Positions 6,378-23,700 of a stretch of DNA of 64,000 nt are shown here, piece by piece (positions within the stretch are counted from its first letter, which is position 1; every line of letters starts with the position of its first letter). The notes under the pieces are model-generated. The model did no database searches, was not told the DNA's origin, and saw nothing but the letters and a program-made list of their open reading frames with translations. Where the stretch lies: positions 195,354 to 259,353 of the forward strand of contig JBDRJV010000007.1 in NCBI GenBank assembly GCA_043814605.1, given 5' to 3'. The stretch comes from Candidatus Omnitrophota bacterium (GTDB lineage: Bacteria; Omnitrophota; Gorgyraeia; B26-G9). The translations under genes were made by a program, and so were the position numbers.

Positions 6378-7682
6378 ATGTATAAAATCAGTAAACTTGA
6401 AAATGATGTACGGATTGCAACATATTTAATGCCAAAAATGCAGACTGCGGCAATTGGAGTATGGGTCTATGTAGGAGGCCGGGATGAATTAAAGGAAAAA
6501 AACGGCATTTCCCATTTTATTGAACATTTGGCTTTTAAGGGGACAAACAAGCGCTCAATGCTTCAAATTAAAGCCGCGGTTGAAGGAATAGGCGGCGTAC
6601 TTAATGCATTTACTACGGAAGAACTAACGTGCTATTTGGCTAAAGTTTCGGGAAAGCATGCTGAGCAAACGACAGAAGTTCTTTTGGATTTAGTCTTAAA
6701 TTGCCAGTGTAAAAATAAAGATATTAAAAAGGAAAGAAATGTTATTTTTGAAGAAATAAAAATGTATTCGGATTTACCGCAGCATTTGGCATTTGATAAA
6801 TTATTAAAGCTGCTTTGGCCGGATCATGCTTTAGGCCGGAATTTAACGGGAAGTTTTCAAACTTTGAATAATTTAACACGTAAAGATATCATCCGGTTTA
6901 AAGGACATTACTACAGAGCAGAGAATATGTTAATTACTGCCTGCGGCTGCTTAAATCATGTGAAAGTTGTAAAAGTTATAAATAAATTTTTTGCTAGTAA
7001 TCCGGAGCTAAATAAAAATAGAAATGAAGGAAATGAGAAGTTTATAAAAAATATTATTAAAGTAAAAGAGTCACAAAAAAAAGCACAGTTGCAAATTTTC
7101 CGTAAAGATACTCAGCAAACCCATCTTTGTTTTGGCCTGCGTGCTTTAAAAAAAAATGATCCGCGTGAATATGTACTCACATTAATGCATATAATTTTGG
7201 GGGCAAATATGTCGAGTCGGTTATTTAATGAATTACGGGAAAAAAAAGGTTATGCTTACGATATTGGTACGGGTATTAAAAAATTTTCTGATACCGGAGC
7301 TTTTTTTATTCATGCCGGTGTTGTGAATAAATACGCGGAGCGTGTTTGTGAAATCATTTTGAAACAGTTGACTAAATTAAAAAACGTTCTGGTCCCAGGG
7401 GAAGAGCTGCAAAGAGCTAAGGAATTTTATTTTGGACAAATGTTAATGACATTGGAAGATCCGCTGGAGCGGATGGTTTGGCAGGGTGAAAATATTTTAA
7501 AAACCGGTAAAGCAAAAACAACCCGGGAAATAATTAACAAGGCTAAAAAAGTTAGCGCAGCGGAAATACGTAAATTAGCAAAATCAATCTTTATTAATGA
7601 TGCGTTGAATTTATCGATTGTCGGTCCGGTAAAAAATAGTCAATCTCAACGCATTAATGAACTTTTGAAAGGATTTAATTAA
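6378..7682 (+). CDS. M16 family zinc metallopeptidase (pitrilysin/insulinase-like)
   Basis: 434 aa; inverted zinc-binding motif HxxEH present (GISHFIEHLAFKGT). Confidence 0.85.
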   Translation: MYKISKLENDVRIATYLMPKMQTAAIGVWVYVGGRDELKEKNGISHFIEHLAFKGTNKRSMLQIKAAVEGIGGVLNAFTTEELTCYLAKVSGKHAEQTTEVLLDLVLNCQCKNKDIKKERNVIFEEIKMYSDLPQHLAFDKLLKLLWPDHALGRNLTGSFQTLNNLTRKDIIRFKGHYYRAENMLITACGCLNHVKVVKVINKFFASNPELNKNRNEGNEKFIKNIIKVKESQKKAQLQIFRKDTQQTHLCFGLRALKKNDPREYVLTLMHIILGANMSSRLFNELREKKGYAYDIGTGIKKFSDTGAFFIHAGVVNKYAERVCEIILKQLTKLKNVLVPGEELQRAKEFYFGQMLMTLEDPLERMVWQGENILKTGKAKTTREIINKAKKVSAAEIRKLAKSIFINDALNLSIVGPVKNSQSQRINELLKGFN

Positions 7683-15896: not shown

Positions 15897-15974
15897 CGGG
15901 GCGTGGCGCAGTTTGGCTAGCGCGCTTGAATGGGGTTCAAGAGGTCGGTGGTTCAAGTCCACTCGCCCCGACCA
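15897..15974 (+). tRNA. tRNA-Pro (anticodon GGG), CCA encoded
   Basis: Manually folded cloverleaf. 7-bp acceptor stem (CGGGGCG/CGCCCCG, with C1-G72 as is typical for bacterial tRNA-Pro), U8, 4-bp D-stem, 5-bp anticodon stem CUUGA/UCAAG with loop AU-GGG-GU, 5-nt variable loop, T-arm GGUGG-UUCAAGU-CCACU, discriminator A and 3' CCA. Confidence 0.88.
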
Positions 15975-16005: not shown

Positions 16006-16452
16006 ATGAAAAACCAGGAGTTAAAGGTAAGCCAAAAAATAAATTTTAAAGAGCAACGGAAATTTGTCCGGATCGATGCAAATTTTGTAGTAAGCTATTA
16101 TATTTATCCGAAACATATTAAAGAAACAGATATGACCCTAACTCGTAATTTAAGTTTAGGAGGGATTTGTTTTACCACGGATAAACATTTTCCTCCGGGG
16201 ATAATTTTGCAGATTACTTTAAGATTGCCTAAAATCTCTCATCTTGTTAAAATTTTAGGTGAAGTGGTTTATGTAAAACAGGAAAAAAATAAAAAAATAC
16301 TTTTTGATATCGGAATTAAATTTGTACAAATCAAAGAAGAAGATATTGTTACGCTTGAGGAAATAATTAATAATTGTGCTTCAGAGCTTAAAAAAATTAA
16401 TTTTAATCTTCAAAAAAAGAAAAAAAAAGAAAAAAGAAATGAAAATCATTAA
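16006..16452 (+). CDS. PilZ domain protein (putative c-di-GMP binding)
   Basis: PilZ signature motifs RxxxR (EQRKFVRID) and D/NxSxGG (TRNLSLGGICFTT). Start set to ATG 16006, because the ORF-track start 15913 lies inside the tRNA. The Lys-rich tail overlaps the hom start. Confidence 0.6.
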   Translation: MKNQELKVSQKINFKEQRKFVRIDANFVVSYYIYPKHIKETDMTLTRNLSLGGICFTTDKHFPPGIILQITLRLPKISHLVKILGEVVYVKQEKNKKILFDIGIKFVQIKEEDIVTLEEIINNCASELKKINFNLQKKKKKEKRNENH

Positions 16453-17734
16453 TGTGGGATTAATAGGGCTGGGGACAGTCGGTTGCGGAGTAGTTAAGGT
16501 TTTTGAGAAAAAATCGGAGATTCTCCAAAAAAAGCTGGGGATTAAGCTGGTTTTAAAACGTATCTGTGATATTGATTTAACCCGCCCCAGAGATGTGAAT
16601 ATTGACTCTAATATTTTAACCTCAGATGTAAATCAATTACTTGAGGATGACCAAATTCAAATTATTATTGAATTAATCGGTGGAATTCATCCGGCGAAGA
16701 GTTATGTTGTTCGCGCCTTAAAAAATAAAAAATATGTAGTTACAGCCAATAAAGCTCTTTTAGCCGAAGCCGGGGAAGAGATCTTTAATATTGCCCGTGA
16801 GAATGCAGTGGACGTGTATTTTGAAGCTAGTGTGGGTGGCGGCATACCGATTATCAAGGCATTAAAAGAAGGGTTTGTGGCTAATCAGGTTGAAGGAATA
16901 TTCGGAATAATTAACGGCACAAGTAATTATATTCTTACCCAAATGTCTCAAAAGGGATGTGAATTTAAAATTGCTTTAACTGAGGCACAAAAAAAAGGTT
17001 ATGCAGAGAAGGATCCCACTTTAGATATTGACGGGCTGGATTCGGCGCATAAAATAGCAATTTTAGCCCAACTCTGCTTTAACCAATCTATCCAGACAAA
17101 AGATGTTTTTGTGGAGGGGATCAGAGATATTGATTTAAGTGATATTAGATATGCAGATGAACTGGGGTTTTGTGTGAAACTTTTAGCAATTGCAAAAAAA
17201 AACGGTAATGAATTACAATTGCGGGTGCATCCCACACTTTTATCAAAAAGGAGTTTATTGGCTAAAATTAATGGCGTATATAATGCAATTTTAATTAATG
17301 CAGATTTAGTCGGAGAATGCTTGTTCTACGGCCAGGGAGCCGGGCAAGCACCGACGGCAAGCGCGGTAATGAGCGATATAGTATGTGTGGCTATGAATAT
17401 ATCCGGCGAAATTTTGGCGGATAAAAATATCCCCGAAATAAAAAATAGCACAGAAAAAATTTCGTCAATTGATGATCTGGAAACCCGCTATTATATGCGG
17501 TTTGCGGCATTGGATGAGCCGGCGGTTTTATCCAGTATTGCCACAATACTGGGTAAATTCGGAATAAGCATTCATAGTGTCATACAAAAAGGCAGACGTC
17601 AGGAGCAGGCTGTGCCGATTGTGATGATGACACATGAAGCAAAAGAAAACAATTTAAAAAAGGCATTAGTTGAAATTGATCAACTACCCGTAATAAAAAG
17701 GAAAACTGTAGTTATCCGGGTAGAAAGAAATTGA
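16439..17734 (+). CDS. hom: Homoserine dehydrogenase
   Basis: NAD-binding N-terminus MKIINVGLIGLGTVGCG, catalytic domain (…AEKDPTLDIDGLDSAHKIAILA…) and a C-terminal ACT domain. Start chosen at 16439. Confidence 0.9.
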   Translation: MKIINVGLIGLGTVGCGVVKVFEKKSEILQKKLGIKLVLKRICDIDLTRPRDVNIDSNILTSDVNQLLEDDQIQIIIELIGGIHPAKSYVVRALKNKKYVVTANKALLAEAGEEIFNIARENAVDVYFEASVGGGIPIIKALKEGFVANQVEGIFGIINGTSNYILTQMSQKGCEFKIALTEAQKKGYAEKDPTLDIDGLDSAHKIAILAQLCFNQSIQTKDVFVEGIRDIDLSDIRYADELGFCVKLLAIAKKNGNELQLRVHPTLLSKRSLLAKINGVYNAILINADLVGECLFYGQGAGQAPTASAVMSDIVCVAMNISGEILADKNIPEIKNSTEKISSIDDLETRYYMRFAALDEPAVLSSIATILGKFGISIHSVIQKGRRQEQAVPIVMMTHEAKENNLKKALVEIDQLPVIKRKTVVIRVERN

Positions 17735-17758
17735 AAAATCAACAAGGAAAAGTAAAAA

Positions 17759-18829
17759 ATGCATGGGCAATACAGAGGTTTGATTCATAAGTATCGCGAG
17801 TATCTTCCTGTATCGGATAAAACGCCGATTGTGACATTGCAGGAAGGAAACACGCCATTAATTTTTGCTCCGAATGTTAGTAAATTAGTGGGAGCGAATG
17901 TAGAGGTTTATCTTAAATATGAGGGAGTTAATCCTACAGGATCTTTTAAGGATCGGGGCATGACTTTAGCGATCTCTAAGGCACGGGAAGCGGGTTCTTG
18001 TGCAGTTATGTGTGCTTCTACCGGAAATACTTCAGCTTCGGCTGCAGCTTATAGTGCCTGTTGCGGGCTTAAATGCATTGTTTTGATCCCAGAGGGATCT
18101 ATTGCTTTAGGAAAATTAGCGCAAGCACTTATTCACGGGGCTGAAGTTTTAGCAGTTGAGGGAAATTTTGACCAGGCATTAGAACTTGTGCGTCAAATTA
18201 CCGAAAAGTACCAGGTAACTTTAGTAAATTCGCTAAATCCTTTTCGGATTCAGGGCCAAAAAACCGGAGCATTTGAAATTTGTGATTATTTAGAACAATC
18301 TCCTGATTTTTTAGCTATTCCAGTAGGCAATGCCGGAAATATTACTGCGTATTGGCAGGGTTTTAAGGAATATTATGAGAAGTCATTAATTAAAAAATTA
18401 CCAAGAATGTTAGGGTTTCAGGCTGCAGGTTCTGCGCCGATAGTGCGGGGTGAAGTTGTTCCTGATCCGAAAACAATTGCTACAGCAATTAAAATTGGTA
18501 ATCCGGCTAGTTGGCGCCAAGCAGAAGCCGCGCGGGATGATTCAGGCGGGCTTATTGATCTGGTCAGTGATGAAGAGATTTTAGACGCTTATAAAATTCT
18601 TGCCCGGCAGGAAGGTATTTTTGTTGAACCAGCATCAGCAGCTTCGATTGCCGGAATTATTAAATTGTCTCATGCAGGGTTTTTTAAAAAATTAGGTAAG
18701 ATTAAAATTGCCTGTATTTTAACTGGTCATGGGTTAAAAGACCCGGATCGGGCGATAAAATGTATCCAAGCGCCTAAAATTATTCCGCCCACGCTGGAAG
18801 CAGTATTAGAGGAAACAGGTATAAAATAA
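17759..18829 (+). CDS. thrC: Threonine synthase
   Basis: 356 aa; PLP-lysine motif NPTGSFKDRGMT; fold-type II PLP enzyme architecture. Confidence 0.9.
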   Translation: MHGQYRGLIHKYREYLPVSDKTPIVTLQEGNTPLIFAPNVSKLVGANVEVYLKYEGVNPTGSFKDRGMTLAISKAREAGSCAVMCASTGNTSASAAAYSACCGLKCIVLIPEGSIALGKLAQALIHGAEVLAVEGNFDQALELVRQITEKYQVTLVNSLNPFRIQGQKTGAFEICDYLEQSPDFLAIPVGNAGNITAYWQGFKEYYEKSLIKKLPRMLGFQAAGSAPIVRGEVVPDPKTIATAIKIGNPASWRQAEAARDDSGGLIDLVSDEEILDAYKILARQEGIFVEPASAASIAGIIKLSHAGFFKKLGKIKIACILTGHGLKDPDRAIKCIQAPKIIPPTLEAVLEETGIK

Positions 18830-18868
18830 TTTTAACGTGATTAAAATTTAAATTAAAAAAATAAAAAA

Positions 18869-20089
18869 ATGAAAAATAAACGTAAAATAAAATATATAGT
18901 TTTAGTACCCGACGGAATGGCAGATTATCCATTAGAAGAATTAGGACAGCGTACGCCGCTTGAGGTTGCCAGAACTCCTAATATGGATAGTTTAGTACAA
19001 AAGGGCAGGATTGGACTATCCTCTTTTGTTCCCGAGGGGTTAACACCGGGAAGTGATGTGGCTAATTTAGCGATTTTTGGTTATGATCCTCAAAAATTTT
19101 ATTCCGGCCGCGCTTCTTTAGAAGCGGCAAATTTAGGGATTGATGTTAAGGATGACCAGATTGCGTTTCGCTGTAATTTTATTACGGAAGAAAATAATTT
19201 ACTGAGTGATTATAGTGCCGGGCATATTACGACAAAAGAAGCGCATGTTTTAATTAAGGTGCTTAATAAATATTTAGCTAATGATCAGCTGCGATTTTAC
19301 CCGGGAGTTAGTTATCGGCATTTAATGGTTATTTATAATCCCGGTAAAGAATTTCTAAAATTAAAATGCATACCGCCGCATGATATTATAGGTAAAAAAA
19401 TTTCTCAGTATTTACCGAAAGGTAAGGGTAAGGAAGAAATCCTGGAAATTATGATTAAATCGCAGGAAATTTTAAAAAATCATGAAATTAACCAGGTCAG
19501 GGTTGATTTAAAAGAAAATCCGGCAAATATGATTTGGCTGTGGGGCCAGGGTAAAAAAGTAGCCCTGCCTTCCTTTAAGACTAGATTTAATTTAGAAGGT
19601 TCAGTTATTTCAGCTGTAGATTTAATCAAAGGCATTGCTTGTTCCATTGGGCTTGAGCCAGTAAATGTACCTGGGGCAACCGGATATTATGATACAAATT
19701 ATGAAGCTAAGGCTGAGTATGCAATTAAAGAACTACACAATAAGGATTTTGTTTTTGTACATGTGGAAGCGCCGGATGAAGCTGGCCATAACGGAGATAC
19801 AAGAGAAAAAATTAAAGCAATTGAAAATTTTGATCGATATATTGTCAGCCGGGTTTTACAAGAGGCTGAAAACATGCCGAATATTCGTATATTAATCTGC
19901 CCGGATCATCCAACGCCGATTGCTTTAAAGACGCATACTGCTGATCCTGTGTGTTTTTTGATGTACGGACAGGGAATTTGTGCAGATAGCGCTCAGGTAT
20001 TCAATGAAAAAGAAGCTAAGCAAAGCAGTTTTATTTTTTCAAACGGGTTTGAATTAATGGAAACATTTATAAATAAAATTGAGATTTAA
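18869..20089 (+). CDS. apgM-family metalloenzyme (cofactor-independent phosphoglycerate mutase, archaeal-type); by context the proposed non-ThrB homoserine kinase
   Basis: 406 aa; N-terminus YIVLVPDGMADYPLEELGQRTPLEVARTPNMD and the C-terminal alkaline-phosphatase-like metal site (VHVEAPDEAGHNGD…PDHPTP) are typical of the apgM family. It lies immediately downstream of hom-thrC, and no thrB is present in the window. Confidence 0.7.
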   Translation: MKNKRKIKYIVLVPDGMADYPLEELGQRTPLEVARTPNMDSLVQKGRIGLSSFVPEGLTPGSDVANLAIFGYDPQKFYSGRASLEAANLGIDVKDDQIAFRCNFITEENNLLSDYSAGHITTKEAHVLIKVLNKYLANDQLRFYPGVSYRHLMVIYNPGKEFLKLKCIPPHDIIGKKISQYLPKGKGKEEILEIMIKSQEILKNHEINQVRVDLKENPANMIWLWGQGKKVALPSFKTRFNLEGSVISAVDLIKGIACSIGLEPVNVPGATGYYDTNYEAKAEYAIKELHNKDFVFVHVEAPDEAGHNGDTREKIKAIENFDRYIVSRVLQEAENMPNIRILICPDHPTPIALKTHTADPVCFLMYGQGICADSAQVFNEKEAKQSSFIFSNGFELMETFINKIEI

Positions 20090-20201
20090 CATAATATTTA
20101 AGGCAACCTGCAATCTTATTTACTGCCTATTATAACTTAACTCATTAAATATTAAATACTTAAATGTTCATTTTTTTAAAATTAGAGCGTAGGGAAGGAG
20201 C

Positions 20202-20230
20202 TTGACAGAAGAAAATAAGTATGCTATACT
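20202..20230 (+). promoter_or_regulatory. Sigma70-type promoter (TTGACA-17-TATACT)
   Basis: -35 TTGACA at 20202-20207, a 17-nt spacer, -10 TATACT at 20225-20230. Predicted TSS near 20237. Confidence 0.55.
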
Positions 20231-20236
20231 TATTAC

Positions 20237-20475
20237 AGAAGTTAATAAATCTTTTTATTAGTTTAAAAGAAGTTTAAAATTTATATCCGAAAATTCGCTA
20301 ATTTAAAAAGCGAATCCCGCCTTATCATGGCGGGAGGCAAATCCTTAAGAAATTAGGGATGCGCAAAGCTACGGGTCTAACGCAACAAGCTATGATCGCC
20401 GGGCGCACCGAGAACGAACAAGTTTGATGAAAGATAGCCGAGCTGCCGAGATATATGCAGTTCGGCTATTTTATT
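20237..20475 (+). ncRNA. Candidate small RNA / structured leader (~240 nt) of unknown family
   Basis: Bounded by the consensus promoter at 20202-20230 and an intrinsic terminator (10-bp stem AGCCGAGCUG/CAGUUCGGCU at 20436-20467, followed by AUUUUAUU). It contains GC-rich hairpins (AUUCGCU…AGCGAAU; UCCCGCC-UUAUCAU-GGCGGGA at 20315-20335) in an AT-rich background. No ORF of 60 aa or more. Confidence 0.35.
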
Positions 20476-20708
20476 AATTAAGGAAGGAGGATAAATGCGA
20501 AGTAAACAAAGTGTGCAAACTATAAGTTTAAATTATAATTTGGCATCATATATATTTTATAAATTTTTTATAAAAAAAGTTTGCATAAAAAATCAGAAAG
20601 GAGGAGACAGTTCACATTTATTAGATGATTTCATCATTATTATTTTAAATTTTTTTATGGCCTAATATATAATTTATAAAAATAACCTACACAAAGGGGG
20701 GGATTAAA

Positions 20709-23700
20709 ATGAAACAAGGTATACGCTATTATTCTTATTTTATTTTAGTATGTTTTTTAGTTAATATGTTAACAGTGAATGTTGGGTTGGCTTTTGATTT
20801 AAAGGCACAGCAGGATATGCTAATGTCCGATGAGGTAATCCAGGGAATTTTTGGCAGCCAGATTTCAGAACAAAGCCAGTCAAGTGATTTAAATCGGGAA
20901 ATAGCACCGGCGCCGAAAGTAATCACTACTTCTAACGGAGATGTCTACATTTATTCTGATGAAGGTGCTTCCGCACAAGTATCTAAGAATGAAACCGGGC
21001 ATACAGAAGTAACCTATTCCTTAAACGGAGCAAAAATTAAAATTAAAAATGAAAATACAGGTGAGGAATTTTCTTATCGCTATAATTTAAACGGCGCTCA
21101 GGTAAGTTTATACAGAATTGATGAAAATGGGAATGAAGCTTTGGTTTCTACTCAAACATTTAATAATTTTGGACAGCTTACTTCTACAGCAGGCCAAGGT
21201 AAAATTACTTATATTTATTCTCAAGACAACCCTGATATTTTGGTTAAATCAATTGATCAATGGGGCAATGAAACAATTTATGATGATCAGGGCCGGCCAG
21301 ATTATATTATTAATTATGATTCTGATGGTAATCAGGTTCAAGTGGGAAATTATACTTTTAATTCACGCGGAATTTTAGAAACTTTTGTCGATTATAATAA
21401 GAATGTGACGCATTTTGAAAATGACGGGATTAGACCGAGTTTTACTACCAATGCTCAAGGCACAACCACAAAGACATATACTTATGACGCAGATGGCCAT
21501 TTAGCTCAGGTTACGGACGAAGTAAACGGGCAGATTACCATAGTAGAAGACGGATACTACACAGTCACTTATAATGTTGAACCGGTTATGGATGAGCAGG
21601 GTGTTCCGGTTTTAGATGCGAACGGAGATCCAGTGGAGAATACAGTTTTAGTTGGCGCCTATAATTATAATGCTGCGGGTCAATTGGAAAGTATGACTAA
21701 TTTTGGCGATGAAGGAACCATGATGGGCTGGACTGAATTTGATGCTACCGGTCAAATATCCGGCGCTTATAACCAGCACGGGGTATTAATACAGGAGTAT
21801 TTTTATAATCAATTTGGCTTTCTTGAATACACAGTTGCTTTAGGCGCACTTAATAATTTAACTGATCAGCAAGTTAAAACTACTTATACAATTATGGATG
21901 ATCAGGGCCGGCCAAAGGAGGTTTGGCAGATTGGTGATGGCGGCAACAAAGTAAAAATCCAAGAATATGAATATGGCGCAGACGGATTGCTTGCGGCAAC
22001 TTATAGCTTAGGTATTATGCGCGGGTCAGATGAAAATAATCAAACTACTTACTGTCAGCCGATTAATGCGCAGGGCAATTTAGCTACAGATGAATCAGAA
22101 TATGTTTATTTTAGAACTTCAAAAACAGTATTTGATAGAAAAGGGCGTCCGGAATCAGTTTCGGCAGTCTGCTATCAAAGAGATGAGAATGATAATTTCA
22201 TTGTTGATGCCAATGGCGCTCCAGTGGCTGACCGAGATGAAGATGGGCAAATAATTTATGAAAAACAGCAGTCCTATAAATATAACTCCAAAGGTTTTCT
22301 TGCGGAAACTATCTCCTATGGTTTTAACGGCAGAATTACCGGAAAAACTGTATTTGATAAATTTGGCAGGCCGGAAGAGTCGTCAAATGGACAGGGGACA
22401 CTTACCCAGCGATATGTATATGGGGATGATGGATTTTTAAAGAAAACCATAAACTTTGGCGAAGATGGGGTGCAGACAGGACATACTTTGTATGATGAAA
22501 AAGCCAAACCCACAGAAGTATACAATCATGCAGGAACTTTAGTGCAAAAATATGTGTACGATGAAAACGGCTTGATGGTTATGAGCCTTAATTTAAACGG
22601 AGAAGACGGCTTAAACGGCATGCTTGTTTCTTCGATGGAAGATGCGGAATTAATTGCCGCAATGTGGGATAATTCTTTTGATGCTGAGATTATTGCCGTT
22701 ACCGGCAGTTTTGACAATCAGGCTTTAATGAATGCCATGTGGGAAAATATGGAGAGTAATCCGGAATTAGCAAAAAAGATCTGCCTGAAAGTAATCCAGC
22801 TTTTTAGTGACGGAGCAAAAGGCGGGGATCAGAACTTAATTAATGATGTAGGAACTGCTTATCATATGCTCGGACAGTTTTTAGAAGCAGAAGGTGATCA
22901 AGCTGGCGCAATTGCTGCCTATAAAGTTCAAGGCAGTGAGTTTACTGCAGCGATGGCGATTGGCGCTAGCGGTAATCCTGAATCAGTTACCGCTTGGTCC
23001 ACAGACCGCTTAGCACAAATGAATGACGGAGAAGGTGCAGATACAGCAGTGGTTACAGGGTATACAATTTTTGGCGGAGATTCTAAACCAATGGCATCTT
23101 ATCAATGCTATAATGACGGGCAAAATGGGTTACAAGTAACAAAGGTTCAGGATTTTATTTATAGTTATCAAACTACGGAAAGACGTTTAGTCGGACAAGA
23201 TGCAGAAGGTAAAGATGTATATGTTGATATTGAAGTTACAAGATTTTCAAATTCAGTACAGAAAACCGTTAATTATGGTGATAACGGTGCGGAAACTGGA
23301 TATACTTTATTTGATGATTATGGCAGGCAAAAAGCTACTTATAATGAGGAAGGACAGGTAACGCAAAAATATACATACAGCCGTGAGGGTTTTTTAACGT
23401 TAACTAAATCTTATGGTGTAGATGGCGCTTGTACAGGAGCAACAGTTTTTGATAAGTATTCCCGGCCAGTAGCTTCTTTTAATTTAGCCGGCAGTACGGT
23501 TTCTATCCCGGATGATTTAATTGCCGCTTTAAGTAATGGCCTGACAGAAGCGGATTTAGAAAATACACAATGGCAGCCGTATTTAAAAGGATTATCACAA
23601 ACTTTTGAATATAATGCAGAAACCGGGCTTATGGAATCCAGCAAATCCTGGGGTGAAGCTGTTGAGATAAGTGCAGCTAATATTGGGAATTTTGCCGATG

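Follow-up and report, generated by a model that had tools for sequence, protein, structure and literature searches.

What is the strongly structured RNA that appears to be transcribed and terminated on its own just ahead of a gene for a 2,287-aa protein in an Omnitrophota genome? A preliminary description of the 64-kb stretch of DNA analysed here (the window) had pointed to a sigma70 promoter, TTGACA-17-TATACT, followed by a strong intrinsic terminator, to the lack of any ORF of 60 aa or more between them and to GC-rich stem-loops in AT-rich surroundings, and had offered two readings of the interval, a small RNA (6S-like or novel) or a regulatory leader or attenuator of the giant gene. These sequence observations stood up well. 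The promoter matched 11 of 12 consensus positions, was the top-scoring site within 4 kb and carried an extended -10 TG at 20222-23. Promoter-like sites as a class were not clearly enriched (22 versus 15.2 +/- 4.0 in shuffles), and the reality of this promoter is therefore argued from its conservation in orthologous loci, where a sequence comparison found TTGACx-17-TGnTATACT at the equivalent place; TTGACx-17-TGnTATACTTAWT also precedes other members of the riboswitch subfamily described below. Transcription is inferred to start at about 20237, at the head of an AU-rich leader. The leader motif UUUUAAAAG..UUUAAUUAGUUU, the counterpart of the AATAAA/TTTATT repeat, is kept in relatives and was found in locus L001 too, which has no riboswitch.

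The G+C content of 20284-20476 was 45.6%, against 23% in both flanks and 35.9% in the window. The 245-nt plus strand folded at -76.7 kcal/mol (z = -5.3; 0/200 shuffles equally good) and the minus strand of the same 245 nt with a z of -3.2. The list of ORFs confirmed that none of at least 60 aa lies between promoter and terminator, the sole one of at least 25 aa being a 27-aa frame on the minus strand.

An Rfam scan of the locus, one of the checks proposed in the preliminary description, gave a full-length c-di-GMP-I (GEMM-I) aptamer, RF01051, on the plus strand at 20326-20450. The match covered all 87 model positions (1-87) with 48.2 bits, the gathering score being 35, and had an E of 2.4e-6 with the whole window as reference; scores were 42-64 bits in orthologous loci and reached 80 bits in other members. 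The aptamer elements could all be aligned, namely GGCAAA, a 7-bp GAAA-capped hairpin, the linker with GCAAAG, the second helix and the GCCGAG tail, with a 49-nt insertion in the window at the place of 13 nt in the RF01051 consensus. Three nucleotides, G20336, A20365 and C20446, align to conserved consensus letters, and with the additional use of the alignment to RF03167, a model that includes P1, we take them to be G20, A47 and C92 in Vc2 numbering, which in Vc2 are ligand-contacting nucleotides. The Rfam alignment places the C44 equivalent at C20362 and the G83 equivalent at G20437; the C44-G83 pair, or G83, is important in the c-di-GMP-I riboswitch (PMC11705072). The tetraloop receptor is represented by UCUAA at 20377-81, its 3' side being atypical in the window (GAAAGAU) and UAUGA in relatives; the bulged AG is A20436-G20437, and the linker reads UGC in place of the consensus GAC. 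Judged from its sequence, the RNA of 20282-20476 is a c-di-GMP-I (GEMM-I) riboswitch, a known class, with its own promoter and terminator. The coordinates of its parts are collected in the table.

Table. Features of the riboswitch locus (positions in the window)
Feature	Position	Strand	Basis or remark
Sigma-70-type promoter	20202-20230	+	-35 TTGACA 20202-07, 17-nt spacer, -10 TATACT 20225-30
AU-rich 5' leader	20237-20281	+	AATAAA/TTTATT inverted repeat, upstream of aptamer
P1 5' strand UAUAUCCG and J1/2 AAAA	20282-20293 (strand 20282-89)	+	MFE of pre-terminator transcript, RF03167 model
Inserted hairpin hpA, UUCGCU / AAUUUAAAA / AGCGAA	20294-20314	+	Alignment A1
Inserted hairpin hpB, UCCCGCC / UUAUCAU / GGCGGGA	20315-20335	+	Alignment A1
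Aptamer core, 5' part	20336-20366	+	Rfam alignment
Second-helix 5' strand S2, AGCU-A-CGGGUC, and UAAC receptor side	20367-20381 (S2 20367-77)	+	Rfam alignment
Proximal module GAUCGCCGGGCG-CACCGAGAACG	20394-20416	+	Near-invariant, 23 nt, apex of extended helix
Distal 3' strand, GAU-AG-CCGAGCU, then G and C92 equivalent (20446)	20433-20446	+	Rfam-aligned strand
P1 3' strand CG-A-GAUAUA	20447-20456	+	Doubles as terminator loop
Terminator 3' arm GCAGUUCGGCUAU and U-tract UUUUAUU	20457-20475	+	Fold energy, conservation
AU-rich spacer to start codon	20476-20708	+	Two AAGGAGGA motifs, at 20484 and 20598
Putatively regulated gene, 2,287 aa	20709-27572	+	Domain and protein-database searches

Two variants of the class were considered. 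An A at position 20 marks the GEMM-Ib 3',3'-cGAMP riboswitch; the equivalent position is G in the window (G20336) and in 33/33 members of the family assembled below, which argues against cGAMP specificity. The c-di-GMP-I-GGC variant (RF03167) is marked by GCGAAG. The window and all relatives have GCAAAG, a motif whose A, at position 47, speaks against this variant as well. When L071 is aligned to RF03167, the G of the model has no match, and the RF03167 matches in L012, L139 and L151 appear to derive from the P1 pairs included in that model.

With RF01051 types such as Vc2 of Vibrio cholerae and Cd1 of Clostridioides difficile, the window shares GGCAAA, a GNRA-capped P1a, xxC-GCAAAG, a second helix with an NG bulge, the U-GCCGA tail, the G20/A47/C92/C44-G83 equivalents and a place in the 5' UTR of a surface-protein gene. 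It differs from them in the two hairpins (42 nt) between P1 and G20, in a second helix lengthened by about 40-55 nt that contains a near-invariant copy of its own 3' strand and tail, in the UGC linker for GAC and in its host phylum, Omnitrophota. Among the relatives, insertions lie between P1a and GCAAAG, lie at both sites, or are absent.

The covariation analysis against homologous loci, likewise proposed earlier, pointed to a conserved structure. On A1, an alignment of 11 window-type members, the whole aptamer fold had 92% of cells paired and 15 pairs changed on both sides, a result reached in 0/500 shuffles. In the 5' part of the core, the G20 equivalent is followed by GC (20337-38), paired with GC at 20363-64 next to the A47 equivalent; between them lie the P1a hairpin (20342-59, UCCUUAA-GAAA-UUAGGGA, GNRA tetraloop 20349-52) and the UGC linker with C20362. 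P1a had 95.5% of cells paired and 5/6 pairs changed on both sides. S2, which forms the 5' side of the second helix, does not vary within the subfamily; it could pair with any of three partners, namely the distal strand, the proximal strand or the leader. The distal strand was paired in 99% of cells, and the extension of its helix covaries (0/5000 permutations). It has the family consensus, with an AG bulge containing the G83 equivalent, a closing U and the GCCGA tail, and its bulged A is found in 26/33 members; the C at distal position 92 is absent (G, A, U or missing) in L004, L140, L023 and L027.

The inserted hairpins hpA and hpB sit between AAAAU and GGCAAA in the window type. On A1, hpA had 100% of cells paired with 2 pairs changed on both sides, and hpB had 5/5 pairs changed on both sides; the hpB stem also recurs at other places in related leaders. 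The example stem-loop of the preliminary description, UCCCGCC-UUAUCAU-GGCGGGA, is exact in the sequence at 20315-20335; it is hpB, one of two lineage-specific inserted hairpins, and lies outside the canonical aptamer. In members of the L004 type, two hairpins are inserted between P1a and GCAAAG instead, and L101 carries both sets. The AUCCG upstream of the insertions is near-invariant in the subfamily. In insertion-free members AUCCGAAAA adjoins GGCAAA, and AUCCG was assigned to the P1 5' strand because ..AUCCG-AAAA-GGCAAAC.. is contiguous in the insertion-free L012, L016, L023 and L071; in the RF03167 model, which has P1, the leader CG is joined to the CG in the 3' tail. The pre-terminator transcript of the window has, in its MFE, a P1 of 8 bp (20282-89 with 20447-55) with one bulged A, and 88.5% of the P1 cells are paired on A1. 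A comparison of own-versus-cross duplex energies for P1 and the distal tail in 32 members was not significant (1401/5000 permutations). Covariation in P1 as seen by eye in L147, L016, L138 and L023 is suggestive only.

The gene behind this leader starts 233 nt beyond the U-tract (235 nt in the preliminary description). Its 2,287-aa product has YD/RHS-type repeats, one dockerin-like EF-hand module and an N-terminus that by eye is hydrophobic and signal-peptide-like, and is 100% identical to an NCBI protein from a 'Candidatus Omnitrophota' MAG. Almost all of the named homologues belong to Omnitrophota MAGs, one carrying the label PVC group; identity in the closest is 42-49% over the full length. 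A PDB sequence search with the giant protein gave no match, and a protein-based scan of GTDB genomes with its N-terminus found nothing; the protein database and DNA patterns supplied the relatives used here.

Twelve orthologous gene places were obtained as 13 loci, L005 and L006 being near-identical copies, with the synteny hom - thrC-like - apgM - intergenic region - giant gene - kdsA - kdsD - kdsC - lptB. The riboswitch was present in 9/11 distinct syntenic loci with a full intergenic region, about 170 nt before the start codon, with 8 matches to RF01051 and 1 to the clan member RF03167; L003 is cut by a contig end and stands outside these 11. No riboswitch was found in the full intergenic regions of L001 and L013. 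Since L001 keeps the promoter and the leader, its sequence looks like a clean absence of the cassette.

In the spacer, a 56-aa ORF (20495-20665) has a strong Shine-Dalgarno sequence. It was rejected as a leader peptide or conserved coding sequence: it had no Pfam match, L007 has no ATG, and a conserved TTGCAY falls in differing frames among the orthologues. Unlike the 56-aa ORF, a purine-rich GGAGG motif 15-35 nt past the terminator is conserved in the orthologues. A CsrB-like identity of the GGA repeats that occur in related leaders is at most hinted at by a match of 19 bits (E = 0.18), and a search by regular expression found no GGDEF motif or CsrA-like ORF in the 64-kb window, a span too small for this to be telling.

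Scanning with DNA patterns and filtering with nhmmer enlarged the family to 33 distinct members, which belong to Omnitrophota and to one Firestonebacteria MAG. Of the 120 hits to the first pattern, which was too permissive, the majority were chance matches in G+C-rich genomes and were removed by nhmmer. In 33/33 loci the riboswitch lies in sense orientation directly upstream of a gene. Besides the giant gene, the downstream genes include an operon led by a gene for a ~160-aa signal-anchored protein and including a PilZ protein, a protein with MshEN and PilZ domains, a T2SSE (PilB-like) ATPase with an MshEN domain, a MotA/ExbB-family protein and a 1,514-aa S8 protease with FG-GAP and fn3 domains. 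With their c-di-GMP effectors and surface or secretion functions, these targets are, as far as annotation from sequence goes, a typical c-di-GMP kind of regulon.

The way in which the riboswitch would act was considered from its terminator. This was located at 20434-20475 as AUAGCCGAGCUGC, a 10-nt loop CGAGAUAUAU and GCAGUUCGGCUAU, followed by UUUUAUU, with a 13-bp core stem (20434-46 / 20457-69); ViennaRNA folded 20430-20482 at -24.3 kcal/mol, in keeping with the strong terminator described earlier. Our terminator consensus scan limited the loop to 8 nt and consequently missed it. The predicted terminator is kept in all members, with one-sided changes only. Its 5' arm and loop consist of aptamer strands, namely the distal strand 20433-44, G20445, C20446 and the P1 3' strand 20447-55, and aptamer and terminator are mutually exclusive for this reason. 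When successive 3' ends of the window transcript were folded, the canonical aptamer was the MFE for ends at 20444-20464 (P = 0.99 at 20456, with the 8-bp P1), and from 20466 onwards the terminator dominated (P = 1.00 at 20478). In the terminated fold, the 5' strand is predicted to re-pair with the leader AUCCG (P = 0.91 in the window), the partner of AUCCG being CGGGU of the P1b 5' strand. The distal aptamer was the pre-terminator MFE in 25/32 members and was retained at full length in 4/32.

With this layout, the element is probably a transcriptional ON switch in which a c-di-GMP-I riboswitch controls the 2,287-aa gene by termination. Bound c-di-GMP would lock P1, the second helix and C20446, itself a part of the terminator stem, so that 20457-69 would be unable to invade and RNA polymerase would read through into the giant gene; high c-di-GMP would then induce a secreted, adhesin-like protein. 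Without ligand the terminator would form and a transcript of about 240 nt would be released, and the freed 5' strand AGCUACGGGUC would find a new partner in the leader AUCCG or in the internal copy GAUCGCCGGGCG, paying for the opening of the aptamer. This ON reading is preferred because the layout matches that of the pilM ON switch, with a terminator arm inside the aptamer and exclusive folds. In the excerpts of PMC9262584 considered here, pilM of Geobacter, a GEMM-Ib riboswitch for 3',3'-cGAMP, is a transcriptional ON switch described as having the 'T strand in front of the A strand'. The window RNA resembles it, as so excerpted, in the terminator 5' arm drawn from aptamer strands, the exclusive folds, the short decision window and the pilus or surface target; it differs in having G where pilM, which senses cGAMP, has A at position 20, and those excerpts describe no internal decoy copy for pilM. 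The thermodynamics favour an ON switch but leave the sign undecided, since Cd1, an OFF switch, also has an equilibrium that favours the terminator.

The internal copy lies at the apex of the extended second helix. This proximal module (GAUCGCCGGGCG-CACCGAnAAC) is an imperfect copy of the aptamer 3' half, GAUAGCCGAGCU-GCCGA, and was found in 10/10 riboswitch-bearing members of the giant-gene locus type (the window and the 9 found via protein). The wider DNA pattern scans required the module, except for its NAAC part, and its invariance is thus unbiased only in those 10 members. A possible co-variation of R9 and Y15 inside the module was noticed on inspecting the sequences by eye. With chimeras, the proximal apical hairpin showed weak covariation (-3.6 versus -3.2 kcal/mol). 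By eye, a few divergent members (L012, L027, L137 and L071) lend this hairpin some support. Under the ON reading, the most economical role of the proximal copy and the leader AUCCG would be that of partners for the displaced 5' strand, which would make for a cheap and tight ligand-free terminated state, and the frozen sequences could be explained by each nucleotide having two or three alternative partners.

The copy could also be the sensor itself. In such an OFF switch, comparable to Cd1, a compact sensing aptamer would be closed by the proximal strand (20394-20405, tail CACCGA); the ligand would keep the 5' strand on the proximal strand and leave the distal strand free to form the terminator, and without ligand the longer distal helix would displace the proximal strand as a transient antiterminator. 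Several observations fit this design: the RNAalifold consensus of the full-length alignment was the proximal aptamer together with the terminator (96.5% of cells paired), the proximal module paired with S2 in 100% of cells on A1, and the 10 members mentioned above show almost no variation in the module and its tail, a tail better conserved than that of the distal strand. Rfam accepted the proximal strand in L147 (51.9 bits), the distal tail of L027 is without CC and in three further members this tail has no C92 equivalent. The lack of significant covariation between P1 and the distal tail counts against the ON reading, and the covarying distal extension is equally expected of an antiterminator. 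Against it, the proximal copy deviates from the consensus, with C at the bulged A, G at the closing U and one extra nucleotide, and the P1 available to it is 2 bp only (4 bp in the window), whereas the distal copy of the window follows the canonical pattern, with a P1 of 8 bp. The OFF design would be defeated by a distal fold able to bind the ligand, the proximal fold is hardly populated along the folding path of the window (P <= 0.09), and the target genes suit induction by c-di-GMP. According to the excerpts of PMC9262584, Cd1 of C. difficile (flgB) is a transcriptional OFF switch in which the terminator is the equilibrium state and the antiterminator is likewise only transiently stable. If the proximal strand were the sensor, aptamer and terminator would here, as in that partial account of Cd1, coexist and compete with a transient antiterminator; unlike in Cd1, where the antiterminator pairs with the aptamer 3' strand, it would here displace that strand from the 5' strand, and the proximal copy of the window is, unlike the Cd1 aptamer as there described, non-canonical at conserved positions. 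On balance, these models make an OFF switch rather unlikely, though a serious competitor to the ON switch.

It is improbable, by comparison, that the aptamer is degenerate or has changed its ligand, and that the leader is a constitutive attenuator or one controlled by a protein through the inserted hairpins or the GGA-rich spacer. Such a change would be in line with the two extra hairpins that break J1/2 beside the pocket, the UGC linker and the deviating receptor 3' side in the window, the moderate bit score of 48.2 and the riboswitch having been lost from, or never present in, orthologous loci L001 and L013. However, the equivalents of G20, A47, C92, C44 and G83 are all in place, the G at 20 and the A at 47 speak against cGAMP and the GGC variant, respectively, conservation and covariation are strong over the 33 members, and PilZ and MshEN proteins belong to the regulon. 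As for the two readings offered at the outset, a regulatory leader of the giant gene, which had been one of them, is borne out by a riboswitch leader whose terminator overlaps its aptamer and which is conserved upstream of orthologous giant genes. The other, a trans-acting sRNA (6S-like or novel) that is independent of the giant gene and only happens to precede it, is very improbable: its own promoter and terminator would indeed yield a discrete RNA of about 240 nt, and terminated riboswitch leaders act in trans in a few bacteria, but no 6S or other sRNA family matched 20100-20760 in Rfam even at E <= 1, where only chance-level snoRNA matches (E 0.8-1) accompanied RF01051, and a known cis-regulatory family, always in sense and upstream of a gene in the 33 loci, accounts for the whole structure.

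Judged from the sequences compared, the inserted hairpins of the junction, together with the duplicated 3' half, may amount to a new architectural variant. Only tentatively would we go further and regard the Omnitrophota and Firestonebacteria riboswitches as a distinct GEMM-I subfamily with two alternative conserved 3' halves and a ligand junction that accommodates one or two pairs of additional hairpins, an idea that we hold to be possible rather than likely. Were both 3' halves functional, they would constitute a strand-swap expression platform undescribed for the class, in which the copy may act as a decoy that tightens the OFF state, as an early-capture or hand-over device that lengthens the sensing window, or as a reversal of sign.

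The riboswitch class is well known and its identification is in itself ordinary; for its phylum and gene-family context we found no description, and c-di-GMP riboswitches were not mentioned in the Omnitrophota literature searched. Riboswitches of class I do precede large surface adhesin genes elsewhere: in the excerpted text of PMC4933901, the Bc2 c-di-GMP riboswitch precedes cap, the gene for a collagen adhesion protein of Bacillus thuringiensis, and the window RNA resembles both Bc2 and the cbpA riboswitch (PMC4933901 and PMC7423583, both as excerpted) in class, in its long 5' UTR and in its kind of target. It differs from the systems in those excerpts in phylum and protein family, the comparison covering features other than the expression platforms. 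Omnitrophota are an uncultured phylum of very small cells, whose long extracellular proteins are thought to serve attachment to hosts or prey (PMC10066038; bioRxiv 10.1101/2023.11.21.568195). For one such conserved, long, secreted repeat protein, c-di-GMP is here proposed as a concrete regulatory input, and a small c-di-GMP RNA regulon is outlined that comprises the giant protein, the PilZ operon, the MshEN proteins and the protease. With its duplicated 3' half and junction insertions, the RNA is a compact natural system in which to study the default state of a riboswitch and how it is set. If the subfamily reading holds, long surface proteins, PilZ proteins and pilus ATPases of these ultra-small, possibly host-dependent bacteria would be under the control of c-di-GMP.

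The giant gene, which encodes a YD-repeat/dockerin-like protein, sits between a threonine-pathway cluster (homoserine dehydrogenase, a PLP enzyme and an apgM-type phosphoglycerate mutase) and kdsA-kdsD-kdsC-lptB, and this gene order was kept in all the orthologous loci (L001-L013), with an additional CstA gene in L011. In the window a tRNA gene (Rfam, 58 bits) precedes the homoserine dehydrogenase gene, and a tRNA was likewise located upstream in L063, another riboswitch-bearing locus.

The c-di-GMP-I riboswitch was absent from two of these orthologue loci, L001 and L013. The promoter, the AU-rich leader and the post-terminator sequence of L001 are shared with its riboswitch-bearing relative L147, and because these flanking parts are retained, the riboswitch cassette appears to be cleanly missing in L001, as a natural presence/absence polymorphism. 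The promoter-proximal sequence TGnTATACTTAWTRYAG, spanning the -10 element and the initial transcribed region, was conserved in about 20 loci before differing genes, together with an AU-rich inverted repeat that comes after it (e.g. TTAAAAGCTTTTAA). Both were also found at loci without the riboswitch, and may constitute a 5' stem-loop or an operator.

Downstream of the terminator, two copies of AAGGAGGA were found in the spacer preceding the giant gene, with just two further copies elsewhere in the 64 kb, and a GGAGG-type motif was kept 15-35 nt 3' of the terminator in the orthologous loci. The 56-aa ORF 3' of this motif was not conserved, L007 having no ATG and the frames varying, and conservation of a TTGCAY motif about 50-100 nt 3' of the terminator was at the DNA level.

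Features of the riboswitch loci and their positions
Feature	Position	Strand	Remarks
tRNA gene	window 15897-15971	+	Rfam, 58 bits; upstream of homoserine dehydrogenase gene
Giant-gene flanks	window 16376-20089 and 27761-30784		gene order kept in L001-L013; extra CstA gene in L011
-10/initial transcribed region	window 20225-20262
Post-terminator spacer	window 20476-20708		AAGGAGGA at 20484 and 20598; ORF 20495-20665
(AAUC)UCCCGCC-loop-GGCGGGA hairpin	window 20315-20335		L004/L140, 3' of aptamer hairpin P1a; L139/L145/L146/L150, 3' of terminator
Riboswitch absent	L001 2636-3000; L013 2724-3000
Terminator-loop insertion	L063 ~6613-6660; L151 ~7280-7330		~48 nt
Leader with CAGGAUG copies (example)	L150 ~1480-1682	-
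Second-operon ORFs	L142 +130, +658, +1007, +1788		from conserved aptamer stretch GCAAAGC

By its position, a second conserved operon is placed under control of the same riboswitch type (L142, L143, L145, L149, L150, L152, L016, L137, L144 and L151). Its products are a PilZ protein, a signal-anchored protein (about 160 aa, with FWFKIIxIIIIQALLLTQxDFALA) that had no match in Pfam, and secreted proteins that are rich in Ser and Thr and in which 'AGYS..E' motifs recur. In L139, L145, L146, L150 and L016, the leaders 3' of the riboswitch terminator contain 2-7 copies of CAGGAUG(AAAUAAUC..), several within hairpin loops (ACAGGAUGU), which in sequence are similar to the GGA sites bound by CsrA. Against the CsrB model of Rfam, related leaders scored only 19 bits (E = 0.18), and a CsrA gene was not found within the 64-kb window.

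A structured insertion (..GCUCAGGAUUSGUCCUGAGUA..GGGACGA), without a match in Rfam, occupies the terminator loop at the identical point of the riboswitch tail in L063 and L151, whose gene contexts differ. In several members with two hairpins inserted between P1 and G20, as in the window, the junction hairpin hpB reads CUGCC-loop-GGCAG, similar to the upper part of the terminator stem-loop. Across related leaders, (AAUC)UCCCGCC-loop-GGCGGGA was found at varying sites, which is suggestive of a hairpin module that can be reused or can move.
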